From assembly GCA_038087875.1 (NCBI GenBank), contig CM075991.1:7132001-7196000 (forward strand): DNA of 64,000 nt, in the 5' to 3' direction. The number at the start of each line of letters is the position of its first letter. Position 1 is the stretch's first letter. Both the position numbers and the translations under genes were made by a program. The notes beneath the pieces are model-generated. The model searched no databases. It worked only from the letters and a program-made list of their open reading frames with translations, and was not told where the DNA came from. Source of the stretch: Malacoraja senta (taxonomy: Eukaryota). This document shows, one piece after another, positions 4,940 to 60,393 of this stretch.

Positions 4940-6051
4940 GGTGCAAAAGTACTTTAAAAAAATAAAAAATTGAGGTCGGGTAAGGGGGGATGATAGTTGA
5001 AGAGTTGGTATGTCCTATTTACGTGATGCTCAAAAAAAAACATTTGTTTTTCTTTTTTTCTCTCTCTCTTTTCTTTTCTTAGGGCCTATTTCTTAACTCT
5101 TTTTCTTTTTGTTTTTAATTTCGCTCTCATAGGGTCCTCGTCCTTTTTTGTTGTTGTTACATTTTCTACACTTTTCTACACTTGCACTTTTTCCTTCACT
5201 TTCTTCTCTCTTTCAATCTTTTCTTTCTTTAGTGTAAAAAAAAAAAATAAAGGGAGTACATTAATTGTAAGAAGATATAAATGACGAGTATTAATGTATG
5301 TGGCTGTGATGTAATGTACTTCTAATAAATAAAAATTAAAAAAAAAAAAAAAAAAAATCAGGCCTAGTGACAGAAACAAGAACATTATCATCTGCGACAA
5401 GCATTTGAATTGTGTTTTTTGAATGAAATTAACAGCAGGATGCCATGAAAACACAAGCAATTGTGATATCTAAATGGAGCCAGGCTCATGTAAAGTATTG
5501 TACAGTAAATGGATAATGAGGGCACATTCAGAGGTGATTTAGACAAACATCACTGATTAAACTGAAAATGGCTCAAAACCATGGCCCAATTTGGATAAGT
5601 AGGGTTAAGTACAGTGAAAAAATTCCACACTGTGTGGAATATATTTAATAACGTTGCTGACACGATTTATGTGACCTACATTTTTTATAACAAATATTCA
5701 TGCAAAAGAATGCATTATAACAAGGCCAGGAGTGGTGTAAATCGCAGCTCGCTGCAGTTCAATGTTTTATGGCTGTGGCACGAAGGATGATTAATACTAT
5801 GGTATGTACGAGAAATTTTATAATATATTCAGTCTCGCTTTAAAGAATACTTAGTCATCAATTCAACACAAGAAGTTTAAGTATGTAACTTGGAGAATGC
5901 AAAACAATGGTAGATGCAAGGGTTTGATAATTACTCTTTGGAAACATGGTAATTTGTTTAAAGTCAATGTAGAAGAAGAATGTAAAGAAGGTTCAATAAT
6001 GAGAAGCCCTCCAGAAACGAATGAGTGACGGTTTCATGCTTCGTTTCATTT

Positions 6052-6347
6052 ACAGATACAGCGCGTAAACAGGGCCTTCAGCCCACCGACTCTGCGCCGA
6101 CCAGCGATCCCCATACACTAGCACTATCCTACACACGAAGGACAAATTACAAATGTACCAAAACCAATTAACCTACAAACCTGTACATCTTTGGAGGGTG
6201 GGACGAAGCCAGAGTTCCCGGATAAAATGCAGGCGGTCATGGGGAGAACGTACAAACTCCATACAGACAGCACCCATAGTCAAGGATCAAACCCGCGTCT
6301 CTAGCGCTGTAAAGCAGCAGCACTACCGCAGCGCCACTGTGCCACCC
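6052..6347 (-). mobile_element. HE1-like tRNA-derived V-SINE
   Basis: tRNA-like head, central GGAGTTTGTACGTTCTCCCC domain, CR1-like tail. Confidence 0.85.
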
Positions 6348-6825
6348 CTCTGGGAATTAAAAATTAAAAATTGTCTTAAAGGGTAACCTAAAAATATTTA
6401 AGGCGGGTAAATCTGACTTAAGACACAAAATGGTGGAGTAACAGCAGCATCCGTGGAGAGCATGGATAGATGACATTTCTGACATAAGAAGGGTCCCGAC
6501 CCGAAATGTGTTCCTGTCAATGTGATACTGCCTGTCACACTGAGTTACTCCAGCATTTTGTGTCTTTCCTCAGTAAACCTGCATTTGCAGTTCCTTGTTT
6601 CTACCTCTCTATTCGATAGATGGACTATCTTCCCTCTCCACTCTCAGTCCTGATGCAGGATCTTGTTTCTACAAATATGATGTTACATTGTGAGTGGGTT
6701 CATTTTGCAGAACACAATTGCAGTTAGTTTGGGTGCACCACACACAAAGGCAGAGCAGGGGAAATGACACAGATGCAAAGGGAACACAAAAAAATCTTGA
6801 ATCATTCTAGGGATGGATTGATTGA

Positions 6826-7125
6826 AAGATACAGCATGGAAACATGCCCTTCTGGCCCACCGAGTCCATGACGACCATTGATTCACAATAGTTCACACTA
6901 GCTCTTTATTATCCCACATTCACATCCACTCCCTACACACTAGCAGCAGTTTACAGAGACCAACTAACCTACAAACCCTTGCATCTTTGGGATGTGGGAA
7001 GAAATCAGAGGAAATCACAGGGAGAATATGCAAATTCCACACAGATGGCATCCAAGGGCAGGATCGAACCCTTGTCTTTGGCGCATTGAGGCCTGAGGCC
7101 TACCAGCTGCACCACTGTGCTGCCC
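6826..7125 (-). mobile_element. HE1-like SINE, diverged
   Basis: Same head, central domain and tail. Confidence 0.75.
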
Positions 7126-7978
7126 TCACAGGTCACAGGCATAAGGAAAGGTGAGCCTGTAAAGAAATTTGAAAAGAAGGAGGACAATTTTAACGAGGAA
7201 TAATAATCAGGAGGGGGATCGGCACCTACAGGGGTAATGGTGCAACACAGTCAAACAGAGGGCCATGGAGAGATACAGCATGGAAGCAGGCCCACTGAGT
7301 CCTCAATTAATATCAACCATACTTTTAACTGCAATTCTACATTAATCCTTTTCCCTTGCATTGTTATAAGCTCCTCCACTCACTTACACAATTTAGGCAA
7401 TTTACAGTGGCCAATTAGTTTCCCAGTCTGAAGAATAGGTCGAGACCCGAAACATTACCTATTCCTTCTCTTCAGAGATGCTGCCTGTCCCGCTGAGTAC
7501 TCTAGCATTTTGTGTCTATCTTCGGTTGAAACCAGCATCTGCAGTTCCTTCCTACACAAATTCCCATTCTGCATGTCTTTGGAGTTTGGGAAGAACTGGG
7601 ACCACCTAGATGAATCTCATAACACTGCGACTTGTGTTTGGACATGCGCTTGCATGATCTTGTTTGGAGGAGACAAATTACTTTGGATTTGGGGATCCTC
7701 TCAGGAGAACATTCTATCCTCACCTCCAATTTCATTGCCTTACTTGACCTTCAACAAATTGGAAGGCAAACTAGGGATAAGTCATAAATAAAACACAAAG
7801 TGCTGGGGGAACTCAGCAGGTCAGACGACATCCGTGGAAGGAAAGGGTAGGTAATGTGCTTGAGTAAAACACAAAGTGCTGGAGGAACTCAGAGTGTCAG
7901 GTCAGGTCTGTCACCTGTCCATTCCATCCACAAATGCTGCTTCACCCACTGAGTTCCTTCAGCACCTTCAGCAACTTT

Positions 7979-8262
7979 AGGGAGGCACGGTGGCGTGGCA
8001 GTAGAGTTGCTGCCTTAGAGCGCCAGAGACACGGGTTCTATCCTGACTACGGGTGCTATCTGTACGGAGTTTGTACTTTCTCCCCATGAACTGCGTGGGT
8101 TTTCTCCAAGATCTTTGGTTTCTTCCCACACTCCAAAGAGGTTCATTGACTTGGTGTAGTGTGTGTAGGATGGTGTTAATGTGTGGGGATCGCTGGTCGG
8201 TGCGGACTTGGTGGGCCAAAGGGCCAGTTTCCACGCCTTATCTCTAAACTAAAGCCAACTAA
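7979..8262 (+). mobile_element. HE1-like SINE
   Basis: GGCACGGTGGCG head through TATCTCTAAACTAAA tail. Confidence 0.85.
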
Positions 8263-10764
8263 ACCTTTCTCTAGGTTCCAGCAGTTCCTTGTGTTTTCTA
8301 GAGATAGACCATGGGTATTTTCAAGAAATGTTGTGCTTCTGGACCATTGCGATGTTGGTTAAAATGAGCACCATTGTTCTACTGCAAAAGTGAACAATTT
8401 CATAGTATTTGATTGGTATTCTGATAAATACAATGAGATAAATAAAGTTAAAGTCGTCGTACTAATTTCATAGTTGCCCTGGTGAGTTTCGCTGTCTGTA
8501 AAACTAATCACCTACCCACAGCCAACCATGGACCATTGTGGCTTCCACCTTTCGTTGATCATTGTTGCTTTTTGCACATTTTTCATTCATTTGTTTTATG
8601 TACCTTCTCTACCTCTGGTTTCCCTTTCCCCTGACTCTCAGTCCGAAGAAGGGTCTCGACCCGAAACGTCACCTATTCCTTTTCTCCAGAGATGTTGCCT
8701 GATCCAACTGGGTCACTCCAGCTTTTTGTGCCTATCTTCTAAATTAAGTTTATTTTCTCTGCTGAGTGAGTATTTTGAGGATGGAAGATTTTGTTCCCCC
8801 AACTCTCTCACTGTAGATTAGGTTGCACAATAACCCTTTTCCCTGTAGCTTTAAGTGTGAGAGTCTGGATATTTTGGTTGTGAATTGTGAATCCAGGCAT
8901 TTGCTGCTACTGGCAAACTTTCTACATTCTTAAATGACTGCCTTTGATTATAACTGTGATATAAATTTGCAGTTTGGTGTTTGAAGTGCTGAATGTATGA
9001 ATTGTGAGCAGTTTTTAATTACTTTTGTTGGTAAGGCACATGCCATTTGACACAAATAATATTGTAAAAATCTGCAGCGTGCCTTAAATTAGAATATTTC
9101 TGTGGAGCCTTTTGAACAGCTTTGATCCTGCTCATGGCATTAGGGTTATTAAATCAATTCTGTTTGAAAAGGGTCAATCTGTATCATAAGGTACCTTTCA
9201 AATGAAAAGGCAGATTTTTAAATAATTCATAAAGTGATATAAATTCATCACATGGGCTGTCTCACAATCGCAGCACCTCCAACAGAAGAGATGAAGCCAT
9301 CAGGAATAAAGTATGCAACTGCACAAATATGTACAAAATGTTCCATTTAAGAACATAGAATATTGAATAGTACAGCACAGGAACAGGCCCTTCAGCCCAC
9401 AATGTCAGTGCTACCAAACTTTGCAACCCACCCTAGACGTCCATCCTAAAGTTGTGTTACTTGAACTGATAGCCTTGCTAATTGTTCTATGGAAGTATAT
9501 TTGATCATATTTCTGCAAGAATTAGTTGAGCCTTATGACATTGACCACAATATACATGGTGTTTACGTCACTGGGCTGACAATCCACAAGCTTGGATGTC
9601 TGAAGATGGGCCTCGACCCGAAACGTCACCTCTCCATGTTCTCAAGAGATGCTGCCTGGCCTGCTGAATTACTCCAGCACGTTGCGTCCTTTTGTATATA
9701 GGCTGAAATCTCGCCATAGCATCCGGGGAATTTAAATTCACTGAGTTAAATAAATGAATAAAATGCCCCCATCAATATTTTGAGTGTGAGATGATCAGAT
9801 TGTTGAAGCCCCATCTGCTTCACCAGCATCTGCAATTCCTTGCGTCTACATTTTATTGCTTTGCCAGTATCGTTCAGGAAAGGAAAGGCAATGTGGAGTG
9901 TGTCCTACTCCAAACCAACAGCATTTGTATATGATGCTCAACTGCCCTCTGAAACGGCCCATTAAACCACTTGGTTCAAGACAATTAGGGATAGATAGTA
10001 AATACTGGCATTACCAATGGCCCCGAGTCTGTGAACAAATTATAAAAGAAACGGTTAATGACAAGAATGCTGTATTGGGCAATGGAGATGGATTGATCAT
10101 ATAATAATCTCCTTCTTAATAGACCTTTACCAATGAGCAGAGATATGAAAATCAGTGTTCCATGGAGATGGAACTGTGTTTTAAGTAGTTTCTGACTATT
10201 AAGACAATTTGTGTAAACAGCACAGTTCCTGAATTTGTGCTTTTAATTACTAACTCTTCCCCTTGGGGGAAGAAAGTGCTTAAATAACTATGTCTCAATG
10301 TCATTCTGGTACTGTTTCCAGGGCAAATTGAATCAGTAATGCTAGCCCTCTGCTTAACACTCAGGAAGGGTTTATTGACATCAAGACATTCTGGTTTTAG
10401 AAATCTTATCTTATAAGGAGAAACCAGCTTATCGCTGGCTGAATGAACACATAGGAATTAAGTTGCTTTTATTTTTCTCACTGTAATACTTGGGGAGAAA
10501 AAGTTGTTGTTATAAGCAGCCAAATATTTACAAGTATATAAAATTATGAGAGGCATAGATAGGGCAGTGAGTCAGAACCTTTTTATCCAGGGTGGAAATA
10601 TCAAATTAAAGGGCGCAGCTTTAAGGTCATTGGGGCACAGATTAAAGCAGATGCAAGGGGCAAGTTTTTTTTTAACTGTTTCTATGTTCCTTGCTTGATG
10701 TCATGTTTCAAGTGAAATATCTGCAGAGTGATGGTCATAACAAATGCAAACCTCCCTTGCCCTC

Positions 10765-11008
10765 AGATGCTGGTTTACACCAAAGATAGACACAAAAAAC
10801 AAGATTAACTCAGTGGGTCAGACAACATCTCTGGAGAAAAGGAATCAGTGACGTTTCAGGTCGAGTCCCTTCTTCTGACCTCGATCCGGTCTCGACCTAA
10901 AACGTCACCTATTCCTTTTCTCCAGAGATGCTGTCTGACCCGCTGAGTTACTCCAGGTTTTTGTGTGTACCTTAGGTGAAAACCAGCATCTGCAGTTCCT
11001 TCCTACAC
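10765..11008. repeat. Inverted pair of Penelope terminal repeats
   Basis: Two ~110-bp arms in opposite orientation; degenerate flanking repeat TCCCTTGCCCT / TCACTTGGCCT. Confidence 0.85.
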
Positions 11009-11811
11009 ATCACTTGGCCTTGCACGTACTCTCACAAGGTGTTCCATATTAATAAAACAAATGTAACAAGCACAGCATGTTTTAGATAAGAACCCCTTGC
11101 AAGCTGAAATTGCTAATTGCTTCATGTTTTGAAACTGAATGGTGAAAGCTAGGGCAATGGATAAGTGATTTTGATTAATAAATCAAATTAGAATGTGTGG
11201 ACCTTGTGGAAGTAGTGCTGCCGAATCAATAATATAGTCTATCCCTAAATGTTTGCAAGTTGTCCTTATTATTAGTTCTAACCGTGTGCACCAACTGCAC
11301 CCTGCAAAAATGTGTATGGAAATATCTGATTTTGATTCTATCTAACTGTAAATCAACTATTATTTACAACTGTGAAGTCATCGAGTCATACCGCACGGAA
11401 ACAGGCCCTTCAGCCCAACTTGCCCTTGGCGACCAGCATGCCCCATCTACGCTAGTCGCGCCTGCCCACATTAGCCGACATCCCTCCAAACCTCTCCTAT
11501 CCTTGTACCCGTCCATTATGGATATCTCATAACTTGACCAATGTCTTACAAAATAATTTGTTCTTTGAATTCTGTTCTTGGAAATAGTTCCTGTTTTACT
11601 CTCTTGACAATTACAGTTGTCCTCCTTTCAGTGCCGTTTTTCCCTCTCATCTGGTGGTTACTATATTAGGAAATATTTTCCATTGGGCTTAGATGCCCGA
11701 TATTTTGAAGTTGTGATATTGTTACTTCTGTTTTTGATTCCCGTTCAGCACACTGCAGACCTCACTTTCTTGCATTCAATCTACTATAAGAATCAAATCA
11801 TTTTGGCAGCT

Positions 11812-12098
11812 TTGGAAACAAGCCCTTCGACCCACCGAATCCACACTGACCAGCGATCCCCGCACATTAATGCTATCCTACACACACTAGGGGCAATTTT
11901 TATATTCATACCCAGCCAATTAACCTACAAACCTGTACGTCTTTGGAGTGTGAGTGGAAACCGGAGCACCCGGAGAAAATTCACACGGGTCACGGGGGAA
12001 CATACAAACTCCGTACAGACAGCACATGTAGTCGGGATTGAACCCGGGTCGCTGGCGCTTTAAGTGCTGTAAGGTAGCAACTCTCATGCTATGCCACC
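11812..12098 (-). mobile_element. HE1-like SINE
   Basis: Matches the other copies in the window. Confidence 0.85.
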
Positions 12099-12596
12099 TT
12101 TGAAAGACGAAAATAATCCCGAAACAACTTTGATAAGATTGGTTTGCATCTTTGATAATGAGCACTGACTGCGAGATGGAGAGCGCACACATTATCCTAA
12201 TTATACAGACAGTTTTTACTTTATTGTGTTTGTGCTAGGCTTGAATCTGCTGAATTATTTTTAGTGCATTCTAACTTAAATCTTGTTGCGGTTGTTAAAA
12301 AAATGTATGAAGTCAAGGTGAGGTTGAGTAAATCTCCCTATGATTAAAAGTGGCACAGGAAATATGTCATGGCAGGTGTTTTATGTCAGCCCTTCCATAG
12401 GTAGCGCATTGGTTTGGATGTTCACAGAAAAATTGGGCATTTTATAGGTTATTTTTATTTGTGCTATTTTAATTTAATACTTTGCCCCAGGCATTTGCAT
12501 TAGCCTATGCATCACTTCAGAAGGAAGTGGTTAAATAATAGTTATTAATTTTTTTTAGTTTAGTTTAACTTCCGAATTCCAAACTTCAAGGTATGT

Positions 12597-12900
12597 GGGC
12601 GACACCGTGGTGTAGCGGTTGAGCTACCGCCTTACAACGCCAGAGACCCGGGTTCGATCCCGACTACGGGTGCTGTCTGTACAGAGTTTGTACGTTCTCC
12701 CCGTGACCAGTGTGACTTTTCTCCGAGATCTCCGGTTTCCTCCCACGCTACAAAGACATACAGGCTTGTAGGTTAATTGGCTTGGTATAATTGTAAATTG
12801 TCCCTAGTGTGTAGGGTAGTGTTAATACGCGGGGATCACTGGTCGGCATGGACTCGGTGGGCCGAAGGGCCTGTTTCCGCGCTGTATCTTTAAGCTAAAC
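12597..12900 (+). mobile_element. HE1-like SINE, well preserved
   Basis: A box TGGTGTAGCGG, B box GGTTCGATCCC (12651-12661), central domain, GGGCCGAAGGGCCTGTTTCC tail. Confidence 0.9.
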
Positions 12901-13879
12901 GTGATATCTCTAAGTTTCCCAGCCATAATAACTTGCTTAGAACTGTCATAGATAGGATCTTCTCTCATATGATTGTCCACACTGACAATTTCCTTGCTTC
13001 TGCGCTAAGGAACAGAGGTATAGGTTTGAACAGTTTGAATAATATGACACAAATATCTTGGACGATTTTCTCAATTTTTCTGCTGCAGTCTCAGAGGAAG
13101 GAACTGAAGGAAGAAAAGAAGCAATATAAAGTAAAACAACAAGCTTTATGTGTTAATGAATCTATAGGACCCGCTTGGGAAGGCATTGTTGGATGGCAGA
13201 CGATATTGCTGAGAATTTTGTGGAGAGTTTTCTTTTAATTTAATGACTGTTGCTTCTTCTAGACAAGTTGTGGCCAATCTTCAATCCACCTAAACTGGAA
13301 AATATGATAAACCTGCCAAATTTTACCTCAGAATCAGCAGTAATGAAATATAAAAAATCGGCACTCTCTCTTGAGCACGTTATGGGAAAAAATTAATCAT
13401 GACATGGAAGATATACACAAAGAACAAATGTCCTTTTCCAAAGTTGAGCAACATAATTCCTTTGCTATGGAGAGAAGGAATGGGTGACATTTCGGGACTC
13501 AACTCGAAACGTCACCCATTCCTTCTCTCCAGAGATGCTCCCACTGAGTTACTCCAGCATTTTGTCTCTATCTTCAGTTTTGTCCCTATCTTCATTTTGT
13601 CTATCTTCAGCACCTACAGTTCCTATCTACATAATTCCTTTACTTGCAGTCTCTTTAATTATTATCTCATTACCGAGAAGGGTGTTATTATGCTCAAGGA
13701 AAATTGATTTGCCTGGATACAGTGGGCCGGAGGGCTTGTTTCTGCGTTCTATGATTTATATTAAAGATTTTGAACTTGTTTGCTGCAAATTTCTAGATGC
13801 ACATAACGGAATGAATTCCTTAGGACTTCCTTAACGACGGGATATTCTGAAAACCATTATGTAGTATCTCTGTCAGGTA

Positions 13880-14065
13880 GTCCACAGGCGGCTGTGGAGG
13901 CCAAGTCAATGGATAATTTTAAGGCAGAGTTTGATAGATTCTCGATTAGTACAGTTGCCAGAGGTTATGGGGAGAAAGCAGGAGAATGGGGTTGAGAGGT
14001 TAAGATTGATTAGCCATGATTGAATGGACTTGATGGGCCGAATGGCCTAATTCTGCTCCGATCAC
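13880..14065 (+). mobile_element. CR1 (HER1-like) LINE 3' fragment
   Basis: GTGGAGGCCAAGTCA..GATGGGCCGAATGGCCTAATTCTGCTCC tail. Confidence 0.75.
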
Positions 14066-14227
14066 TTGTGAACAGGTGCAAGCTGATGAGACCCTTTGTT
14101 GGGAATGGAGGGATATGGATCCTGTGCAGGCAGAGTTGATTACTTTAACATGGCATCATGTTTGCATGGACGTTGTGGGCCGATGGGCCTTGTTCCTGTG
14201 GTGTACTGTTCCATGTTCTGTTGTTCT

Positions 14228-15190
14228 AGAATTTAGAATTTTAGAATGCTATTTATTGTCATTCCAACCTAGGCTTGAACGAAATATCGTTACTACAGGT
14301 TTTAAATTTTTTTTTAATTTTTTTTTTTACATTACAAAAAAACCCAAGACCCACACTTAACACAGTTTACATAAACATCCATCACAGTGAGTCTCCAACA
14401 CCTCCTCACTGTGATGGAAGGCACTGTGATGGAAGTCTTATCTATTCCCTTTATTTTTCACTGCAGCGTCTAGGCGAACTGGGGCTCCGGTGTTAAAGCC
14501 CCCGGCGGACGATGGTAAGTCCTGTGGCCATTTAGCCACGCCGGGCGATGCCAGGCCCCGGCTCCGTGTCCTTCAAACCCCGCGGTTCAAGCAGTCCAAC
14601 CCGCAGTCCAACTGCAGCGTCTAGGCGAACTGGGGCTCCGATGTTAAAGCCCCCGGCAGACGATGGTAAGTCCCGTGGCCGCTAACCCGCGCCGGGCGAT
14701 GTTAGGCCTCACTCCGTGTCCTCCAAACCTCGCGATTCCAGCGGGAGAAGTTGCCGTTGCAGGAGCTCCGAAAAGCCGTCTCCCACCAGGGACCTGGAGC
14801 TCCCTATGTTCCTGTCCACCCGGCCCGCAGCCGGAGCTTCCGAAACTCCAAAGTCGGGCCACCACAGCTCTCCCCGCTCCAAAGTCGGCCAGCTCCGCGA
14901 TGTCAGGTCCCAGGCTCCGCGACTGGAGCCCTCAGGTTGGTCCCGGCCGGAGGCCGCCGCCGGCTCCACAATGTTAGGCCCAACGACATCGGAGATCCAA
15001 CAGGGAAAACGTCGGGTCCCCGTACAGGGAAGAGATTAACGGTTTCCCCAACATCCCCCCCTCCACCCCCCACATATACACAGCTAAAAATAATAAAAAC
15101 TAAGCTCAAGACATACATTTAACAAGACAAAATTTAAAAAAAAAGACGGACGACTGTAGTTGAACCGCTGCCGTTAGGTGCCGCCACTTC
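14228..15190 (-). mobile_element. Non-coding GC-rich retroelement with Rex/RTE-type tail and ~150-bp internal tandem repeat
   Basis: Minus-strand tail ATTTCGTT..GAATGACAATAAA plus ATTCTAA repeats; duplicated unit at 14460 and 14611; CpG-rich. Confidence 0.65.
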
Positions 15191-15371
15191 TATGGCAACG
15201 ACCGTCAATCCACACTAATTCACTATTCACTAAAGATTTAAATTTACTAATCGTAAGTGAAACTGTCATAAATTTAGCCGTTCCTCTAATGGTCCAGGGA
15301 TTATGAAATGAGTATTATTTTTTTCACAACCATATTTATTGTATGCATGAAACTGATCACTCATTAACCTA

Positions 15372-15776
15372 AAGATAGGCACAAAATGCGGGAGTAACTT
15401 AGCGGGTCGGGCAACATCTCTGGAGAAAAGGAATAGGCAACGTTTCAGGTCAAGACCCTTCTTCAGATGGAAGAAAGTTCCCGACTGGAAATGTCATCTA
15501 TTCTTTTTCTCCAGAGATGCTGCCTGACTCGCTGAGTTACTCCAGCATTATGTGTCTATCTTCGGTGTAAACCAGCATCTGCAGTTCCTTTCTACACGCT
15601 GGTGATTAACCCGATACTGCCACAATTGCAGACAAAGTGTGTTGGAAGGAACTGCAGATGCTGGTTTAAACTGAAGATAGACACAAAAAGCTGGAGTAAC
15701 TCAGCGGGTCAGGCAGCAACTCTGGAGAATAGGGATAGGCGTCTGAAGAAGGGTCTCAACCCGAAACATCACCTAC
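15372..15776. repeat. Cluster of Penelope terminal repeats in alternating orientation
   Basis: Arms at about 15372-15467 (-), 15470-15597 (+) and 15637-15776. Confidence 0.85.
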
Positions 15777-16065
15777 TTGACCCTGGAGTTGCTGCTTTTT
15801 GATAGAAGCACATACAAAATAAACTGAGGTGCTGTAATCAAAGTTTTTAATGTTTTCTAAGTCAACTTCTCAGTTGTACAATCAAGAATTAACAACGTGA
15901 CAGTACTTTGAGAACAATATTCCCAAAATCAATATGAAAAGTTGTGTAAATGGGCACCTCAGTACTGTCTGGAGATGTTGTGGTACACAGCAGTGCTGTT
16001 TGGTTTATCTGCATAATATTGCTTGAATATAATGTTATGTTCCGTGTATAATGACGGGCATATGA

Positions 16066-16743
16066 GTTTAGTTTAGTTTAGAGCGTAGAAACAGGCCCTT
16101 CGGCCCAGCGAGTCCGAGCTGACCAGCAATCACTCATTCGCTATTTCTATCCCACACACTCGGGACAATTTACAGAAGCGTGAAAAATATGCATCTTCTA
16201 GATGCTCTGGGATGCACCCTCAGTGATGTGACCTGGGATCATCGGGTGTATCAGGCCTCACAACATCAGACACCCTCGCCCAGACGACCCAGCCGGAGTT
16301 GATCAGGCCCCGACTTGCGTCCCAGCCGCAACCGCCCACGGATCAGCCATCTTAATAACTACTCTGCAGGGGTTTGGAGATCCTAGTGCGTGGAGGGACT
16401 GGGCTCTGTGGGGTGAGTCCTGGCCGGGCTCCTCCTGCATCTCACCAGGTTCAAGGCCTGTGCGATGCACCTCTTTCTCCTTCTCCGAGCATTTCATTCT
16501 CGCCTGATGGATTTTTAGGCCATGGTGGTTCATTAGGCCTTTCCTTAGCTTTATCGGAGCAAATTAACCTACAAACCTACACGTCTTTGGTATGTGGGAG
16601 GAAACCAGAGCACCCAGAGAAAACCCATGTGGTCACAGGGAGAACGTACAAACTCCATACAGACACCACCCGTAGTCAGGATTGAACCCGAGTCTCTGGC
16701 ACTATAAGGCAGCAACTCTACTGCTGCGCCTTTGTGCCGCCCA
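16066..16743 (-). mobile_element. HE1-like SINE split by a ~380-bp GC-rich insert (about 16179-16558)
   Basis: Tail half 16066-16178 and head half 16559-16743 rejoin as ACAGAAGC.AATTAACC. Confidence 0.8.
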
Positions 16744-47639: not shown

Positions 47640-47972
47640 TTAGTTTTAGTTTAGAGAAACAGCGTGGAAACGGACCGGTCGGCCCACCGAGTCCGCGCTG
47701 ATCAACGTTCAACAGTACACTTGGTCTATCCTTCACAGCAAGGGACAATTTACAGAGGCTGATTAACCTACAAACCTGCACATCTTTGAAATGTGGGAGG
47801 AAACCATAGCACCCGGAGATAGCCCACACAGTCACAGGGAGAATGTATAACCCACACAGTCACAGGGAGAATGTATAACCTCCATACAGACAGCACCGAA
47901 TCTGGACATAGTCAGGATCGAATCTGGGTCTCTGGAGCTGAAAGGCGGCAACTCTATCGCTACGACAATGTG
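47640..47972 (-). mobile_element. HE1-like SINE with a 28-bp internal tandem duplication
   Basis: CCCACACAGTCACAGGGAGAATGTATAA occurs twice at about 47823-47878. Confidence 0.82.
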
Positions 47973-48123
47973 CAATTGATTCTAATTGGCATTGTTCACC
48001 AAAAGGCCATTGACTGATGTTTAAGATGAAGAACATGTAATCTACAGACTGGGAATGCTGATTTATTAAAAGAGAAGCTCCAATTCACTTTTTTTTATCA
48101 AATTAATTTACATATTCATACAT

Positions 48124-48732: not shown

Positions 48733-49044
48733 TTAGCCATGTTAAAAATTCTGTGCTGGGAGAAACTGCAGATGCAGGTTTAAACCGAAGACAGACACAA
48801 AAAGGGGCACTTCTGGTTGCAAATGAGCCTTGTACTAATAATGTAGTTCCCATGACATGCATGCATGACTTGATGTTATTCCACATGCAATGTGCGTTGG
48901 CCATAAAATCACATCATGCTGTTTCAACATTGTTGGTTCTGCTCATTAGCAACTATGCCTGTGTGATGATAGCATTGGAGTGCTGTCCGTTGGAAGAGCG
49001 ATCTGCCCAGCACTGAGAACACAATCATACAGCCTTGGGCAGCC

Positions 49045-49276
49045 AGAAAATGCTGGAGTAACTCAGCAGGTCAGGCAGCATCTCTGGAGAAATGGAATAG
49101 GTGACCTTTCGGGTTGAGACCCTTCTTCAGACTGAGAGTGGCTGAAGAAGGGTCTCAGTCTGAAGAAGGGTTTAGTCCCAAAACGTCACTTATTTATTTT
49201 TCCTGAACCGCTAAGTTAGTCCAGCATTTTGTGTCTCACTTCGATGTAAATCAGCATTTGCAGTTCCTTCCTACAT
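49045..49276. repeat. Inverted pair of Penelope terminal repeats
   Basis: GCCTTGGGC at 49032-49040 and 49280-49288. Confidence 0.85.
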
Positions 49277-49664
49277 AATGCCTTGGGCTTTGCTATCACT
49301 GGAATTTGCTGTGGGGCCAACAATGTAAAATCTTTTTTAATGCTTCCAAAGAGTTTTTTAGCCAAAGACAGGTGAACCAGTAAAATCAGACAGTATTTTG
49401 GGAATCAATTTTATTCCCAATGCATTAAATATTACATACATTTCAGAGAAATAACTATGTTGTTTTCTTAGGATAGCAGAAAATAGGATTATTTTAAAAC
49501 AAGTAACTTTAATCAGAGTGTCAAGTTTAATGGTACTTTATTTATCACAGGTACAGTGAAATTCACTTTTGTGTACAGTTCAGCATAGGTATTACTATAC
49601 ATAAGCACTTAGATACATCTTAGATAAGCATCCCAGATACAGTACAAGTGTATGGCAGCTATAG

Positions 49665-50085
49665 AGTCATAGTGTCATAGAGTGATACAGCATGGAAACA
49701 GGCCCATCGGCCCAACTTGCCCACACCGGCCAACATGTCCCAGTTACACTAGTCCCACCTGCCCGCGTTTGGCCCATATCTCTCCAAACCTGTCCTATCC
49801 ATGTACCTGTCTGACTGTTTATTAAACATTGGGATAGTCCCTGCCTCGACTACCTCCTCTGGCAGCTTGTTCCATACGCCCACCACCCTTTGTATGAAAA
49901 AATTACCCCTCAGATTCCTATTAAATATTTTCCCCTTCACCTTAAACCTATGTCCCCGGTCCTCGATTCACCAACACGGGGCAAGAGACTCTGCATCTAT
50001 TTCTCTCATGATTTTATACACCTCTATAAGATCACCCCTCATCTTCCTGCGCTCCACGGAATAGAGTCCCAGCCTACTCAACCAC
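49665..50085 (-). mobile_element. CR1 LINE 3' fragment with HE1-type tail
   Basis: FFIQRVVGVWNKLPEEVVEAGTI; tail GGGCCGATGGGCCTGTTTCCATGCTGTATC resembles the SINE tail. Confidence 0.85.
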
Positions 50086-50489
50086 TCAGATGTTCATCGC
50101 CTATAAGGAAGATGAATATAGACAAATGGAAAATGGTAAGACACAATTAAGAACTGGATTTCTTGTTGCAGTCAGTTCAATGGTTAATGTAATTTTCGTC
50201 TGAAATTCCCAGACTTTTGCACTGAATTTGTTTGGATTATACCCAGTGCAAACACTGCAGTGATGGATTAAAATATGCACTTGTCCTCTTCCCCACCACT
50301 GACATTTGTAATCTGGAGGAATGTTCATTTTTCACACAAACTGCTAACAACCTCTCGTATTGAGTGACAGTCTCTTTGTGCATTCACACCCTTCCACGTG
50401 CTTGACATATAATCCTGGATTTCATTCACTGCACAACAGTGTTGTCTTATTCTTCAATCACTAAACTCCTTTGGAATGAAAACAAGATG

Positions 50490-51210
50490 GGTTTCCTGCG
50501 GTTGCAAGGGAAAGTACCAGGGGAGGGGGTGGTTTGGGTGGGAAGGGACGAATTGAATCTATGTACGAAACTTTAAACTGGTTATCCCCCCACGCTCGAA
50601 GATACTACCACTGGTTCCAGTTCATCTTTAAATGCATCCATCTTAATTACCCCTCTTATTTAAAACAAGACCTATTACCATACACACCCTCATATTCACT
50701 AAGACACATTCAACAACCCTTCTTTTTCATTCCAAGAACTAACAAAGAAATTGGGAGACGTGCATTTAAGTATAAAGCTCCTTCTGACTGGAACACTCTG
50801 CCTAGTACCATAAGAACCATTAGTTCATTTCGTCTATTTAAAAATACACTTTTAACATTTCTCATAAAACCATGTACCTGTTTCTAGTATTAGAGTATTG
50901 CATAGCGACTAACATTATGCTGTAATACATAACTTTTGTTATTATTGGATTTAAGTTAATTAACAATTGTTATAAACTATAACAAGTGGGGATGGAGGGG
51001 TTTTGGGTTTGATGTGTGGGTAGGTGGGTCGATGAGAGCCTTTATGTATGTTATGTCTTGTGCTGTATGTTCTATGTTGGACCCCCTCGAAAATGAGATG
51101 ACTGTCCATCTCAAGGGGTTATCCATAAATAAACGTGTTGAATTGACCAGGGAGTTACGGAGGGAGCGGTCTTTGTGGAAAGCCGAAAAGGGAGGAGATG
51201 GGAAGATGTT
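50490..51210 (-). mobile_element. Internal Penelope-like fragment interrupted by an L2-like insertion
   Basis: 50490-50556 and 51140-51210 join to match 40337-40462. Confidence 0.85.
50557..51139 (+). mobile_element. L2/CR1-group LINE 3' fragment, AT-rich and apparently young
   Basis: Uninterrupted YETLNWLS..GRRAFKYKAPSDWNTLP..CTCF stop; 3' hairpin GAGATG/CATCTC; 7-bp TSD GAATTGA. Confidence 0.8.
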
Positions 51211-51404
51211 TCCTGCAGTTGCAACAGGAAATCGATTGAAAAAATTATGATCCTTTGCATAATATTCTGTGCTACAACCTGATAAATTATGTCAATGTGG
51301 AGGAAGCTCACCTGATATTCCGCTTGAGTACCTTGCAATTCAATGGTATGATCATTGAATTCTCCACTTTTAGGTAGCCTCTTGACTTGACATCTAATTC
51401 TCAG

Positions 51405-51870
51405 TGTGTCAGAAGGAACTGCAGATGCTGGTTTACATTGAAGATAGATACAAAATGTTGGAGTAACTCAGCGGGGACAGGCAGCATCTCTGGATAGAAG
51501 GAATGGGTGACATTTCAGGTCGAGACCCTTCTTCAGACTGACAGTCAGAGGAGAGGGAGACAAAGAGATAAAGAATGTAAGGTATGAAAATGAGACATCA
51601 GAGGGGACAAAGCTAAAGGAAAATGTAGAATAGATCTTTGTTAGCGAGGGGAAGGTGACAGTGAAGCATACAAAGATAAAAAATTAATCAAGGGGACAGT
51701 AAGACTGGTCGGAGAACTAGGATGGGGGAGGGATGGAGGGATGGAGAGAGAGGGAAAGCAAGGGTTACTGGAATTTAGAGAAGTCGATATTCATACCACT
51801 GGGTTGTAAGCAGTCCAAGTAAAATATAAGGTGCTGTTCCTCCAATTTGCATTGGGCCTCACTCTGACAG
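51405..51870 (-). mobile_element. Penelope-like 3' fragment (end of GIY-YIG, 3' UTR, terminal repeat)
   Basis: Similar to 39713-40045; flanked by TTCTCAG on both sides. Confidence 0.85.
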
Positions 51871-52462
51871 TTTCTCAGCCTTATGCCAGAGAGTGTTGGC
51901 ACAGCAACGACTGCTCGAACCATTTGTGTGGGATTCCCAACAGTGGGTTACAAAAAGTTTGTTCTCATTTAACTTTATTTTAGTTATTTATTAATATCAT
52001 GGTGCATAATTAATTAAATATACATTTGAATTGTTGATGTATAGTTTTAAATTATTTATCTCTCAGAACAGTTTCAAATTATCACTATCAGATGTAGTAC
52101 ATTTAAAAACAAATTTAAAATCCTTTGACAGCTTTCAAGGCAGTTCTGATGTCCACAGGATATGCCTGAGATGCAGTGGTCATTCACTGCCCACTTTGTT
52201 TGTTCTATGTACCTTTTTATTTCTTTCGGTTCTCTCTCTCCTGCCTCAGTCTGAAGAAAGGTCACTTAACCTTTTACTCCAGAGATGCTGCCTGACCCGT
52301 TGAGTTACTCCAGCTTTTTGTGTCTGTCTTCCGTGTAAACCAGCATCTGCAGTTTTGTCCCACCCATCATGTGCAGTGAGTCAACCTGTTGCTTCAACAC
52401 AAGTAGGATAGGCCTCAGTGTGGCGATCCCAATTCAAGAGCTGCCTTCAGGAAGTTCTGGAA

Positions 52463-52672
52463 CAAGGGTCCCAACCTGGGGTAAATTTACCCCAAGGGGG
52501 TAAATTTGTTGATTCTGGATTTGTACATATTTTTTCTCATCGACTGACTGTGTTTGGTTCTGGTATACTGGTATCTGTTCATCATTAGTTGTTCATAAAT
52601 AAGTGAAATAACATTTTTATATGCTATTAAAGTTGCCAGGGGTAAACGGGATGAAAAGATTGGGAACCCCTG
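52463..52672. mobile_element. hAT (Charlie-like) MITE, 210 bp
   Basis: Termini CAAGGGTCCCAA and TTGGGAACCCCTG; 8-bp TSD TTCTGGAA (52455-52462) / TTCTAGAA (52673-52680). Confidence 0.85.
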
Positions 52673-53266
52673 TTCTAGAACCAGCTTTTTTGCATTCTTC
52701 AGCATTCAGCAGTTTTTCATTGTGATATAGTTTTGTGATCTTTTATGGTTTGTTGTTGCATTACGATCTCTTCCAAATAAAATATTCTGCACTTGTATTT
52801 TTAAGCATGTTGCATACTATCACTAAATGATAGTCTGATGTGTTAAAAGTTGAATATAAATGTGGCATTGATGAAAAAGGGGAAATGGTGCAGATTTTCA
52901 GTATCATTTGAGCACCATGCATTCAACTCATTCTCGGTTGCTTTAACCATGGTTTTCGTTTTGGAAAAATATCCTAATGCAGATCCCAGAAGGTTTTTAG
53001 TACAAAGTATTTGTTGTGAGCCAGCCTAAATATTCACATGTTAGATCGAGGAAATTCTGGGGCGCCATGTAAATGCATTGGAAAGTACATAGAGAAATAC
53101 CATAACATCCAAGGAGCTCAACAAGATGTGTTCAAATTATTCAAGGATGCCATTCAGAGAGGCAAATATGATTGGCCAAATAAACTCAAGAACCCTGTGC
53201 TATTATATTATAGTATATTATATGCTGCTTTTGGAATATTGAAAAGTTTCTGACTGTGCAAGGTCA

Positions 53267-53970
53267 TTTGAGCCTCACATCCGCCATGTTGTCAAAACAT
53301 CATTTTTTCACCTCCGCAACATTGCAAAAATCAGATCGTCTCTCACACCCCCCGCTGCTGAAAGACTCATCCATGCCTTCATCTCCTCCCGACTGGACTA
53401 CTGTAACTCTCTTCTTTTCGGAATCAATTCCAGCAGCATCAAACGACTCCAACTGGTCCAAAATTCAGCCGGTCGACTCATCACCCACACCAAATCCTGG
53501 CACCACATCACCCCAGTTCTCAAAGAACTTCACTGGCTTCCCATTTCCAACCGGATCACCTACAAAATCCTGGTCCTCACCTACAAAGCCCTCAACAACC
53601 TGGCCCCCCCTTATCTCATTGACCTCCTCTCCCCCTACCAACCCTCACGGTCCCTCAGATCCACATCAGCTGGTCTCCTCTCCACTCCAAAATCAAACCT
53701 CTGCACTTTTGGAGGCAGAGCCTTCTCCAGGGCAGCTCCCAGGCTCTGGAATTCCCTCCCACAACCGGTCCGACATTCTGAGTCCCTCACCATCTTCCAG
53801 TCCCGCCTCAAGACCCATCTCTTCACCTCTGCATACCCGTAGTCCCATGTTCCCCTCCCCTCTGTCTTACTGCTCTATTTTGTTTTGTTTATTCCTGACT
53901 CTCAATTGTAAAGCGACTTTGAGTCCTGAAAAGCGCTATATAAATAAAATCTATTATTATTATTATTATT
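53267..53970 (+). mobile_element. L2 LINE 3' fragment
   Basis: Reads FFHLRNIAKIR..LIHAFISSRLDYCNSLL..HITPVLKELHWLP..AAPRLWNSLP..LKTHLF with stop at 53840-53842; tail TGTAAAGCGACTTTGAG..AAAGCGCTATATAAAT plus ATT repeats. Confidence 0.92.
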
Positions 53971-54875
53971 TCTCCACAAAGATGTGATTCTAACACCTGT
54001 TTAAAAAAAAAAGGCTTAAACAAATAATCACTGTCAAAATTAATATTACATTCAGACTGCATTGCTTTTATATAATATGCACAAACGTTGAGAAAAATCA
54101 TGTTCCAGTTTCTGAAATCCCATTTGCTTTACGGCAATGAAGATACAGAAATGAACCTCAAACATTTGTAATGGTTCCCCAGGAGAGATCATTCAAAGCC
54201 TAGAGGAATGGCAGTGGGTCAACGCCATTGTTCAGCGATTGCACTGGACATGCCACTATTATCAACCCTAAACCAAGACCAAATCAGGAGATCCATTGAA
54301 ATCCAGATCATGAGGAATAACTCAATGGATCAGGCAGCATCCCTGGAGGATATGGATAGTTGACGTTTCGGGTTGGGACTCTTCTGCTGTCTGAAGAAGG
54401 GTCCGACCTGAAACGTCGCCTATTCATGTTCTCCAGAGATGTTACTTGACCCACTGAGTTACTCCAGCACCTTGTGTCCTTTTGTGTAAACCAGCATCTG
54501 CAGTTCCTTCTTTCTGCAAAATTGGTTTTGAAAAAGTTGCGTGAACATGCATGCGTACTGTACTGATTTGGACACGTTTGGCTGAGTCAATGCCTACTTG
54601 TAGTCAATGCCTACTTTGTAGTCAATGCCTACTATGTTCTGTTGTTCTGAAGCAAAGCAAGAATTTCATTGTCCTATCAGGGACACATGACAATAAACTC
54701 ACTTGGGACTTGAACATAAAGGCTTTTCATCGCAGATAGTTCAAGCTGTTTGAAAATCAGGGCTAAGCTAAATAAGGTCACATATATATCTGTGAATTTA
54801 TACAATCCAGTGGAACATCTGCTGATGGTGCAGACAAATGCATGGCACAAGGAGCTTAGAACAAGATTTTTGTCC

Positions 54876-55280
54876 TGTGTAGAAGGGAAGTGCAGATGCT
54901 GATATGCTGAAGACACAAAGTGCACCTTTGGAGAAGAAGGATGGATGACTTTTTGGATCGGGACTCTTATTCAGACTGAAATTAGAGGGGACGGAACTGG
55001 AGGTATGAAAAGGCCAGAACATTGCAGGACCAGCACCAGATGACCAAGGAACGGTGGAGCCCATAATGGCCCATTGTTGGCTGGGGAAGGGGTGATAACG
55101 AAGGGATACGCGAACAGTGGAAATAGTAGGATGACTAGGGTGGGGGAGAGGGGGGAGGGAGGGAATGCAAGGGTTACCTGAAATTAGAGAAATGAGCATT
55201 CACACCCCTGGGCGTAAGCTCCCCAAGCAAAACATGAGGTGCCGTTCCTCCAATTTGTGCGTGGCCTCACTTTGACAGTT
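54876..55280 (-). mobile_element. Penelope-like 3' fragment
   Basis: TTACCTGAAATTAGAGAA..TTCCTCCAATTTG matches the GIY-YIG 3' end at 39946-40030. Confidence 0.8.
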
Positions 55281-55314
55281 GTCCTCTTCATTCAAGACTG
55301 ACTGAACTCTGGAA

Positions 55315-55510
55315 TATGCTGGAGTAACTCAGCGGGACAAGCAGCATTTCTGGATAGAAAGAATGGGTGACGTTTCGGGTCGAGACCCTTCTTCAGACCC
55401 AAAATATCACCCAATCCTTTTCTCCAGAGATGCTGCCTGTCCCGCCGAGTTACTCCAGCATTTAGTGTCTATCTTCAATGTAAACCAGTATCTGCAGTTC
55501 CTCCCTACAC
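55315..55510. repeat. Inverted pair of Penelope terminal repeats
   Basis: Arms at about 55315-55398 and 55398-55510. Confidence 0.85.
55368..55396 (-). ncRNA. Minimal hammerhead-like core, intact minus-strand copy
   Basis: Plus strand reads TGACGTTTCGGGTCGAGACCCTTCTTCAG, the reverse complement of the same core. Confidence 0.6.
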
Positions 55511-56254
55511 ATTGACATTCTGGAATTCTTGGTTAACATTTTTGTACTTTTGAAAGCAGTTAATCTCAAAGGGGTAACAGCTTTCAAGCAATAATTATCA
55601 CTTACAACCAATTTGATGTATATTACAATACCTGAAGATTTAAGAAGCAGAATTATGGAAGAACTCTGTGCAGAACAATTAGGCACAGTGAACATGTCTG
55701 CAGTAGCTAATGTCTTAACGTCTGACATGGAATAAGATTTGGAGGAGTTAGGTCTGCAGACTTCACCCACTGACAGATAAAGCCTCACACGTTCCTATCA
55801 TTCAGAGAAGCTGATGAGGAAAGCATTGTGAGCCTTTACCGCTTTGCATTTTTAAATGCCTGTTGCATGATGATAACAAGTGATTACATCTTACCATGCT
55901 GAAACAGGCCTTTTGTTTCGGAGGTTCGGCTTTGGAAAACTGAGTCAGGATGTAATTTGGATTGAATGCTCTCTTTTTGAATTTCTTCATTTGATTTTAT
56001 GCTTCGAAAACCTAAAGGATTAAACAAACTTAAAAATTCATATCAGTTCATTTGAGGATTGTTTCCTTCACATCGCTAGTCCAGATCATAAACCACTGTG
56101 GGAAGAACTGTGAGATTAAATACATGTAAATGCTGCATACGATTTTTTCTGGACAATATTTTTGAAGGGATTAGAAACATGTTTCTTTGATCTTACCTGA
56201 GGCAGAGTGACAATGCAGTAAGCCTCAGAGATAAACTGACAGCGATAAATATTT

Positions 56255-56550
56255 AAGATAGACACTAAGTGCTGGAGTAACTCAGTGGGACAGGTAGCAT
56301 CTCTGAAAAAGAATGTTATGTTGCATTTTGGGTTGGGACCCTTCTTCAGAGGGACTGAAGAAGGGTCCAGACCCAAAGTCTGAAGAAGGGTCCCAACCGG
56401 AAACGTCACCTATTCTTTTTTTCCAGAGATGCTGCCTGATCCGCAAAGTTACTATCTTTGGCATAAACCAGCATCTGCAGTTCTTTGTGTAGGAAGATAT
56501 TGCAGATGCTAGTTTAGACCGAAGATAGACACTGTGTACTGCAGTTCTTT
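56255..56550. repeat. Inverted Penelope terminal-repeat cluster
   Basis: Same consensus; doubled CTGAAGAAGGGTCC at 56355 and 56380. Confidence 0.8.
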
Positions 56551-57511
56551 GTTTTTACTATTAGGGATAAATATTTAGTTGAGTTGCCTGCTTGTAATAA
56601 GTTGGTGTCTCCTGATCTGTGATAGATTGGAGCGTATTTGTGATGGCCCCCACAGTTTAGTTGACCCACTAATGGCCATTATTTATAGTTTTATCAGAGA
56701 GAAATCTGAATAGAGAAACAGCAATGATTTAAAAACCCATGGAATTCACTCTCTATAAAGCAGGAAGAACAGAGAAGCAAAAAAGCCGGATGGGGATTTT
56801 TTTTAAATTTAAAGGGACATCCACTTCAAATAGCACACTGAACAAGGTTCCACAACACATTCTCAATATTTAAGTTTGTTTCTGTCTCTCGGGAAAAATA
56901 GGTGTTAATTCAGTGACGGGGCTGTGCTTCAGGTCAGAACTATTATTGGATGTTGTCAATCAGAAAACCTTTCATTTCATCCACAAAAAAACCCTCACCG
57001 TTGCAAATTCAATGAAATAATGCACAACACTTTGAACTTGCTCGTACATTTGTTAGCTTTCACTCATATTCTCACTCTGACAACCATTACCGAGGCTTTA
57101 TTATTCTCTCCTGATCACTGCATTCATGATTCAACAATCATTCCTCTATCGCATACCATTTCAAAATGCTTTGGATGTAAATGCAAGCTGCAGAATCTGT
57201 CTTCATAAATTTAACATCAGCTGAATCTGTGGAATGTCCAGCCAAGTAGAACTCGGCTCAATTGTTTGTGTTGTGCTTAGCAAAGCGCTGACTGTCAGAC
57301 TGGAGCAACGTAATTAAATAAATAAAGCAAAATAGACCCTACACTTTCCGAGATGATTGTATCATATTGGATTGCAACATGTAAGCATTGATTTTATTGG
57401 CCTGGACACTTTGGTTTGGATGCTTCAATTACATTTGGCACATACTGCTGTTCACAATGGTCTCGCAATCTCTGAAAAGAACTTTACTATTTCTGACGTT
57501 ATTCACGGTTG

Positions 57512-57897
57512 TTCAGTTCAGTTTAGTTTATTGTCACTTGTACCGAGGTACAGTGAAAAGCTTTTGTTGGGTGCTATTCAGTCAGCAGAAAGACAATACA
57601 TGATTACAATCGATCCATTTACAGTGTATATAAGGAAACAACGTTCAGTGCAAGGTAAAGCCAGCAAAGTCCGATCAAGGATAGTCCGAGGGTCACCAAA
57701 GAGTTAGATGGTAGTTCAGCTCTGCTCTCTGGTTGTGGGAGGATGATTCAGTTGCCTGATAGCAGCTGGGAAGAAATTGTCCCTGAATCTGGAGGTGTAC
57801 GTTTTCACACTTCTATACCTTTTGCCTGATGGGAGAAGGGAGAGGAGGGAGTGGCCATGGTGTGATTCGTCCTTGATTATGCTGCTGGCCTTGCCGA
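57512..57897 (-). mobile_element. Rex1/Babar-type 3' end (related tails at about 17400-17600 minus and 42838-42965 plus)
   Basis: KASSIIKDESHHGHSLLSLLPSGKRYRS..SRFRDNFFP.AIRQLN; tail GACAATAAACTAAAC. Confidence 0.83.
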
Positions 57898-58321
57898 GTT
57901 TGTGTGTCAGTTCGACAAGATTCCCAGAATTCGCCAACAGTGGGGTGAAGGTTCTTCACCCCATCGCCAAGGATGGGGTGAAGAAGCAATCACTCTGACC
58001 AATCCCCTCAAGTAGCAAAGCAAGAAGTGAAAAACACAATCTTTAACTAATAAAAGTTTGGATAGGCAAGGTTCAGGAAAGATCTGCGCCACCCAAAGGA
58101 AAAGTATTATTTTTACATCCCAATATATTTTTGAAATATTTCTTTGAGGAATTGCATTTCAAATAAATAAATGAATCTTTTCAGGGCCAGGGAGTTTGTT
58201 AAGCAGTAAATATCCCCCCATCTCAGAGGAGACACAAGGAACTACAGATGCTGGAATCTTGAGCGAAACGCAAAGTGCTGGAGTTACTCTCAACAAGTCA
58301 GGCAATATCACTGGAGTATAT

Positions 58322-58683
58322 AAGTTCATAAGTGACAGGAGCAGAATTAGACCATTTGGCCCATCAGGTCCACTCCACCATTCAATCATGGCTAGTCTAT
58401 CTTTCCCTCTCAACCTCATTCTCCTGCCTTCTCCCCATAACCCCTGACACCAATACTAATCAAGAATCTGTCAATCTCTGCCTTAAAAATATTAATTGAC
58501 GGCACCCACAGCCCGCTGTGGCAATAAATTCCATGGATTCACCACCCACTGGTTAAAACAATTCCTCCTCCTCCTCCTCATCTCAAAGATATGTCCTTTT
58601 ATTCTGAGGCCATGGCCTCTGGTCCTAGATTCTCCCACTGGTGGAAACATCCACTCCACTTCCACTCTATCCAGGCCTTTCAC
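58322..58683 (-). mobile_element. CR1 LINE 3' fragment
   Basis: KGLDRV..GESRTRGH..WNLLPQ. Confidence 0.85.
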
Positions 58684-59045
58684 GACTATTCACAGGTGGC
58701 GTTTCCGATCGGGACCCTTCTTTAGACTGACGTGAGACAACATGGTGGTGCAGGCAATACACGTGGCTCTGTTAGCGATTCTGGGTCACAACATGGAATC
58801 CGATGAAGGGTCCCGAACCAAAACATCGCCTATCCATTCCCTCCGGAGATGCTGCCTGAGTTATTCCAGCACTTTGTGCTTGGATTAAAATCTCAGTTAC
58901 ACCTCAAGCAACAAAATGTAACTGCCTGGAATTTCACCTTCCATCAGTCAGGTTAAACATGCTGTTTAGTTGCATCAGCACATCCTCTTACACCAAAATC
59001 ATGAATTTCAAACCAGGGTAAAACTTGCTGACGTATATATTTAAT

Positions 59046-59138
59046 CTGAAGAAGGGTTTCGTCCCGAAACGTTACCTATTTCCTTCGCTCCATAGATACT
59101 GCTGCACCCGCTGAGTTTCTCCAGCATTTTTGTGTACC
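59046..59138 (+). repeat. Solo Penelope terminal repeat starting exactly at the CTGAAGA core
   Basis: Perfect 12-bp TSD TATATATTTAAT at 59034-59045 and 59139-59150. Confidence 0.9.
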
Positions 59139-59411
59139 TATATATTTAATGCATTTTGTTAATGAAAAGAGATACATTTCCAAGTAAATATTTTCAGAGT
59201 ATTTACAGTGGAATTATTTCACATGCACCCGAACTTCACGTTCCAATTATGCGAGGGAAGATTTCAACACCATGCAATCTCTGCAATGTCGTGGAATCAC
59301 AGGCATTATCTTTTGCAATTTCTGCATGAAATTGTGAGCCCATCCTCACGATCGATTAAATGACTGAGTACCAGCGATTCTTGCAGTAGCCACCACCATC
59401 AAACCCAATAA

Positions 59412-59977
59412 AGGGGCTGTCCCACTGCGGCGACCTAATTGGCAAATTTAGAAGAGTTTAGGAGAGTTTGAAAAATGTCATGTTGAAGACCTCCTTCGAC
59501 TATGTAGAAGACCTCCTTCGACTACGTTGAAGATTAGCTACGACTTGCTTCGACTAGCTTCGGGAAAATTGGACACCGAATAGTGGAGAGTGAAGACGAT
59601 CTCCTTCGATCTCCTTCGACCTCCCTTCGACTATGTTGAAGACTATCTATGACTACCTTCGACTACCTTCGATTACCTTCGACTACCCTCGATTACCTAC
59701 GAATAATATGCCGACCTACTACGACCTACTTTGACTAAACCTACGAGTAAAAAAAAAAGAGATTTTTTTTTCCATGGCGATCTTTTTTTACTCGCGGGCA
59801 TTTTCCAGCACGTTGAAAAATACCTAGCGGAGGCCTCGAGTACGCGGGGACTACTCTCGAGCATGAAGGAGAGTTACAAAGACCTCCTAGGACCTCGTGT
59901 CGACCATGCTGCGAGTATGAGTCGAGGGCAAACTCTTCTAAACTTGCCAATTAGGTTGCCGCAGTGGGACAGCCCCT
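59412..59977. mobile_element. PIF/Harbinger-like MITE, 566 bp
   Basis: 48-bp TIR with two mismatches starting AGGGGCTGTCCCACTGCGG; TAA on both sides; internal TTCGACTA arrays. Confidence 0.88.
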
Positions 59978-60202
59978 TAAGCTTGATGAGCAATTAACCT
60001 TTCCTTCTGGGGAACCAAGACACTGAGAGAAAGACACTTGCTTTTATTGAATGGGTGTTGTGTGATCTCCAGTATCCACATGAAGCAACAGAAGAAGTGA
60101 AAAATGACTCATTTAGATTTTAATTCCAACACTAAGCCTTTGAAAATAGGAAAGTCTCAGTATGGTTCTGGTATATTAGCTCGGATCATCTCAAAATCAG
60201 GC

Positions 60203-60393
60203 CTTCCGGTGGCGTCATGTTAGACTAACAGACGTGCACCCAGCTCCTCTCCCGAAAAACTTCACGATTTATCGTGTAAAACGGGTCCGAAAATCGGGAT
60301 TGTTTTTAAAAACCTTACCGGAGCTTCTGGTTACCGCGCTGATGACGTCATCGTTAAACGCGATGTTTTAAACGGTGGTTTGAAGCCCTTTAA
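60203..60393 (+). promoter_or_regulatory. L1 5' UTR, probable internal Pol II promoter
   Basis: CpG-rich; ETS-like CTTCCGGT at 60203-60210; palindrome GATGACGTCATC containing a CRE at 60341-60352. Function is inferred from general L1 biology. Confidence 0.6.

Follow-up and report, generated by a model that had tools for sequence, protein, structure and literature searches.

An inside-out target-site duplication around a scaffold gap suggests that one vertebrate L1 insertion was assembled twice

In 2021 Rhie et al. (PMC8081667) and in 2022 Ko et al. (PMC9516828) described heterotype false duplications, also referred to as "flanking contigs" or end-to-end duplicated contigs, which the relevant passages of the two papers define by half depth, discordant pairs and 1-copy k-mers. 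In its passages on the subject the second paper lists a gap between the duplicates as a hallmark of false duplications, reports that gaps were not found at the true duplications examined and gives the share of residual false duplications lying on the same scaffold as 61–92% in three VGP assemblies (PMC9516828). The locus analyzed here has in common with the heterotype cases, as these passages present them, the near-identical tandem copies on one scaffold, the gap between them and the differences at the level of alleles (PMC8081667, PMC9516828); unlike in the published cases, its doubling was deduced from the order of a target-site duplication (TSD) and not from a dot-plot. Most likely it is a well-known genome-assembly error and not new biology.

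Two further systems come close. Homotype false duplication at contig boundaries also yields a tandem duplicate with a gap, but in the part of the paper devoted to it the copies stem from one source sequence and have about the length of one read (PMC8081667), whereas the locus described here seems, from its two CpG transitions, to combine two biological sequences, and its overlap, with the contigs in order, would be about 61 kb. Segmental duplication via circular DNA gives the permuted (B-A) order of flanks that is also seen here (PMC7450558, PMC3245284). The cases in the relevant parts of these two papers are distant duplications with microhomology junctions, whereas our locus gives no sign of a distant acceptor site.

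The window, by which we mean the whole stretch of 64,000 nucleotides that was analyzed, begins within one L1 copy and ends within another. Copy 1 (1..5357, + strand) comprises the 3′ end of ORF1, a spacer of about 0.8 kb, ORF2, the 3′ UTR, AATAAA and a tail of 20 A (5338–5357); its 5′ end is beyond the window, at a predicted position of about −904 if the copy is full length. Copy 2 (60205..64000, + strand) comprises the 5′ UTR, ORF1, the spacer and the first 581 codons of ORF2 and continues past the end of the window to a predicted end at about 66467. With both copies full length, the L1 would measure 6,263 bp. Between the copies lies a scaffold gap of exactly 200 N (26497..26696), which is the sole run of N in the window.

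In an exact word count AAAATCAGGCCT occurred twice in the 64 kb, at 5354..5365 and at 60193..60204, both times on the + strand, and its reverse complement did not occur in the window. The 12-mer at 5354, the putative 3′ copy of a TSD, comes after AATAAA and the run of 20 A, the last bases of which are its own AAAA. The 12-mer at 60193, the putative 5′ copy, stands in the context TC|AAAA; it is preceded by ...GATCATCTC and followed by the 5′ end of the L1, TCCGGTGGCG. Since the relative L004 starts with a similar TTCCGGT...CATG...AGACG motif, we place the 5′ boundary of copy 2 at the end of the 12-mer. The poly-A and the short repeat of 12 bp expected of an L1 insertion are in this way divided between the 3′ end of copy 1 and the 5′ end of copy 2. 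Judged by this order, 5366..26496 (21.1 kb, repeat-rich, stopping at the contig end) would be the right flank of the insertion and 26697..60192 (33.5 kb, repeat-rich, starting at the contig end) its left flank.

When aligned, positions 1–2890 and 61110–64000 were 99.86% identical and differed at 4 of 2,891 columns, namely by three substitutions (copy 1/copy 2: 114/61223, 363/61472 and 2343/63453) and by a deletion of one base in copy 1 (about 2297/63407). Up to the deletion the copies are offset by 61,109 and beyond it by 61,110, both figures with the 200 placeholder Ns included. A sequence-only reading of the same DNA had given this offset of 61,109 bp and about four differences in 2.89 kb, had put AAAATCAGGCCT at 5354 and 60193, after the poly-A of copy 1 and directly before the 5′ end of copy 2, and had noted the 200-N gap between the copies; each of these observations was confirmed, and neither strand had a further copy of the 12-mer.

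The divergence of 0.14% (95% CI 0.04–0.35%) falls inside the range of 0.1–1.1% quoted for the heterozygosity of VGP genomes. Among the three substitutions there are two CpG transitions, one in each copy (P about 0.003 assuming uniform sites), and the copies therefore appear to be two distinct biological sequences and not one sequence with errors. The differences as a whole are equally compatible with alleles and with young paralogues. The differences at about 2297 and at 2343 are 46 bp apart and lie beside A-runs in copy 1; these two could be consensus errors. At residue 402 of ORF2, the P of copy 2 is found in 13 of 54 relatives and the Q of copy 1 in 0 of 54. Because of the one-base deletion near 2297, ORF2 of copy 1 (1149..4939, + strand, the start being set by the ATG of copy 2) is read in two frames (ORFs 1140–2315 and 2297–4939), and Pfam recognizes in it an APE endonuclease, a reverse transcriptase and, weakly, zf-RVT. 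The near-identity of L1 bodies as such says little: two fish L1s, L001 and L002, reach 99.64% identity along 5,818 nt with different flanks at both ends, albeit in short-read contigs, in which flanks may be mixed.

ORF1 of copy 2 (60394..61452, + strand; 352 aa) matches human L1 ORF1p with residues 194–336 (E 1.8e-06) and was on this ground assigned to the type II ORF1 proteins, a class characterized by a coiled coil, an RRM and a CTD; it has one cysteine and no CCHC knuckle, and Pfam Transposase_22 did not match it at E 0.001. ORF2 of copy 2 (62258..64000, + strand) is open to the end of the window, matches human L1 ORF2p (E 5.6e-101) and contains the Pfam domains Exo_endo_phos and RVT_1, as do the APE/RT proteins of vertebrate L1s. 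The human proteins that served as reference for these matches were ORF1p (PDB 2yko/2ykp) and ORF2p (PDB 8sxt). In its 5′ UTR, type II ORF1, APE-RT ORF2, poly-A and TSD at Y|AAAA the element is like vertebrate L1s in general, and in its layout it is like L001 and L002 (ORF1 of about 330 aa, long spacer, ORF2 of 1,270 aa), so that by these features it is evidently an ordinary vertebrate L1. It differs from known L1s in that its ORF2 is only about 53% identical to the best full-coverage relatives among the matches listed; it therefore probably forms a family of its own. The named relatives among the matches listed (at least 120) are nearly all from teleost fish, and no relatives were found in viral contigs.

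This assignment bears on whether a sequence-specific endonuclease of the Tx1 type might send many copies of the element into AAAATCAGGCCT, in which case the shared 12-mer would reflect the choice of target. The Tx group is target-specific according to the passages concerned with it in PMC3747384, and ORF1 proteins with an RRM and a CCHC zinc knuckle are tied to the Tx1 clade in those of PMC5203782. The ORF1 in the window is of type II, with no CCHC motif. In an RT-region tree with 40 rows (the window copy and those 39 of 80 loci with a stop-free match of sufficient length), the element fell into a 100/100 clade of 11 rows, apart from all 13 rows with a CCHC-containing ORF1. Because the tree includes no named Tx1 and the label "type II" was set by similarity to the ORF1 of the window, we regard it as supportive and not conclusive. 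Next, the window holds an older, 5′-truncated fragment of the same L1 family (25007..25380, − strand; 3′ UTR only, 90% identical), the 3′ flank of which is not TCAGGCCT. This makes strict target specificity unlikely, on a very small sample, since no further fragment of the family occurs in the window (1 of 1). The common target of unlinked Tx1 copies is usually a multicopy RNA gene or a microsatellite; neither an Rfam match nor a tRNA nor a tandem array was found at the target studied here, and the whole window is without an Rfam match or a tRNA. One observation favors the Tx1-like explanation: L002 is located 13 nt downstream of a tRNA-Trp gene. It is, however, the only one of 13 close relatives with a tRNA beside it; its near-twin L001 is without one, and the two have no common flanks. 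We consider a Tx1-like endonuclease extremely unlikely; the sequence-only reading had called it less likely, and the type of ORF1, the RT tree, the flank of the fragment and the lack of an RNA gene in the window bear this out.

The two copies might also have inserted independently of each other, as members of a young L1 family, with the match of the 12-mers due to chance and to the A-rich preference of the endonuclease. The AAAA part of the match is indeed expected at L1 sites, at its 3′ side the 12-mer could share up to a few bases with the start of the L1 as microhomology, and separate copies of a related family reach the 99.64% identity of L001 and L002. The score was restricted to the 8 bases beyond the A-run, because the four As coincide with the end of the tail and any L1 site would be expected to have them. 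The null model consisted of random pairs of sites from the inner flanks, self-matches excluded, and a match was defined as at least 8 nt beyond the A-run. Such a match was found in 35 of 427,557 pairs with the exact 5′ boundary, in 54 of 249,376 with a slack of ±2 nt and in 130 of 249,606 with a slack of ±6 nt. Among pairs of Y|AAAA sites, 121 of 95,703 had the same next 8 nt, nearly all of them from two repeat-derived words, and TCAGGCCT was not found at any inner Y|AAAA site. Hence chance alone would make the 8 informative bases agree in 8e-5 to 5e-4 of random pairs and in 1.3e-3 of Y|AAAA pairs, and the overall chance of so long a match between unrelated insertions is about 1e-4 to 1e-3. 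To this the gap between the copies would add one more coincidence. We therefore hold independent insertions to be very unlikely and the two copies to be very probably one insertion. For all models together in which one ordinary vertebrate L1 insertion is represented twice, our confidence is very high. The chance statistics, the 5′ boundary of copy 2 and the place of the element among ordinary L1s argue strongly for a single insertion, in agreement with the sequence-only reading, which had spoken of one insertion present twice.

How the one insertion came to stand twice in the window is most readily explained by a heterotype false duplication across the scaffold gap, with one locus on two contigs, and this we consider probable. 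A full-length vertebrate L1 of about 6.26 kb would have inserted once at a TC|AAAA site by target-primed reverse transcription, generating, as the anatomy suggests, a TSD of 12 bp. The same locus would then have been assembled as two contigs, each most likely derived from one parental haplotype, and the scaffolder would have joined both with a fixed spacer of 200 N. Contig A would end with 21 kb of right flank behind its L1 and contig B would begin with 33.5 kb of left flank in front of its own, so that the inner ends bear the TSD inside out. With the contigs in true order the overlap would be about 61 kb; with the contigs swapped, or with one haplotig nested inside the other, less sequence would be doubled, the minimum being the 6.3-kb L1. 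All three arrangements, in order, swapped and nested, are the same class of error. Of the duplication of about 61 kb that had been proposed before, the doubling is thus supported, but an overlap of 61 kb is not needed, since swapped or nested contigs give the same window.

The size of the gap and the contig ends are in line with an artifact. In one YaHS-scaffolded, curated assembly 939 gaps total 187.8 kb, as stated in the pertinent section of its description, which corresponds to 200 each and lets 200 N be taken as a placeholder size (PMC13173280). At the gap the ends of the two contigs showed no terminal overlap, the longest exact repeats within 2 kb of the contig ends were 41 and 47 nt (in-window repeats only), and there was no long homopolymer within 1 kb of them. 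As far as the window shows, the contigs end in ordinary sequence and not in a long repeat or a low-complexity tract.

A real tandem segmental duplication of about 61 kb, containing one L1, with its junction in or near the gap and with a few private mutations since, would lead to the same inside-out TSD and to the same CpG-type differences, and real segmental duplications attract gaps too. Against it stand the fixed size of the gap between the duplicates, the contigs that end in ordinary sequence without an overlap, and the divergence at the level of alleles. If the sequencing technology delivered accurate long reads, these should have resolved a real tandem junction at about one difference per 700 bp; in the case of two alleles, we infer, there was no junction to span. 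We consider a real tandem duplication unlikely. The choice between a true tandem duplication and joined haplotigs had been left open by the sequence-only reading; the indirect evidence now leans clearly towards the haplotigs. From these circumstantial signs, the gap of 200 N between the pair (26497–26696) and the allele-level differences (4 of 2,891 columns) among them, that the doubling is an artifact can be stated with moderate confidence.

An inside-out order with slightly different L1s is also predicted by a model in which a circle of about 61 kb, with the L1 and its two flanks in it and with its closing junction now inside the gap, was excised and recombined homologously into another L1 of the same family elsewhere. 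Circularly permuted duplications are known in humans (PMC7450558) and in tilapia (PMC3245284), but the human cases show microhomology and not long homology at the breakpoints, at least in the passages of PMC7450558 that deal with them. Moreover, nothing speaks positively for a circle at this locus, and its junction would have to coincide with an assembly gap. The model is in our estimation highly improbable. If true, it would mean a permuted segmental duplication between two hybrid L1s, the outer ends of which would bear a different common TSD and have outer flanks unrelated to the inner ones, and thus an L1-guided, circle-mediated duplication in the vertebrate germ line.

If false duplication is the correct explanation, as much as about 61 kb of sequence, with one full-length L1, enters the assembly a second time, a matter of curation only that would inflate counts of young or intact L1s. 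A TSD common to both sides of a gap, inside out, could then serve as a read-free check that flags a locus assembled twice; such a check was not described in the titles or abstract openings among the literature matches listed. A real duplication would be a copy-number variant of an ordinary kind, in which no gene was found.

For host exons in the inner flanks, Pfam was run on 434 of 922 stop-free frames of at least 35 aa, mostly outside in-window repeats, and none was found in either flank among these frames, a search by which short exons could be missed. Neither these frames nor the in-window repeats, none of which crosses the reconstructed empty site, gave an independent sign that the inner flanks were once adjacent. 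A FANCL_d1 match at 28847–28996 (E 0.003) was dropped because it had no PDB match at E 10. Two frames scored above the curated Pfam cut-off, ALKBH8_N (29952–30518) and GIY-YIG (39949–40293), which we take to be remnants of a LINE and of a Penelope element, respectively. The landscape of SINEs and LINEs in the window presumably resembles that of cartilaginous fish.

The L1 coding sequence visible in the window (2297-4939 and 60394-64000) is open throughout, except for a one-base deletion in copy 1, and the insertion is therefore young. The spacer between the two ORFs of the window L1 is about 0.8 kb long (61453-62257); a long inter-ORF spacer is common to this element and to its relatives L001 and L002, in which it measures about 0.65 kb. 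At L002 (33-118) a tRNA-Trp(CCA) gene lies 13 nt upstream of the point where this close L1 relative begins. L001, a twin that is 99.6% identical to it, has no such gene directly upstream.

About 220 bp to the left of the target site ends a non-autonomous element (59413-59976) with the terminal inverted repeats GGGGCTGTCCCAC, 10-bp repeats inside and TAA flanking each end, which we take to be Harbinger-like. At the very start of the contig that follows the gap lies a repeat element of about 120 bp (span 26699-26848); the 14-bp direct repeats on its two sides, at 26699 and at 26834, look like an ordinary target-site duplication.

A GC-rich tandem repeat is present at 48152-48284 (51-bp unit, 2.6 copies, 97% matches); several open frames of 150-200 aa overlap one another there, for which a Pfam search gave no credible match. 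On the reverse strand a GIY-YIG domain fragment (39949-40293, E 4.2e-05) passes the Pfam cut-off and is probably the remnant of a Penelope-like element.
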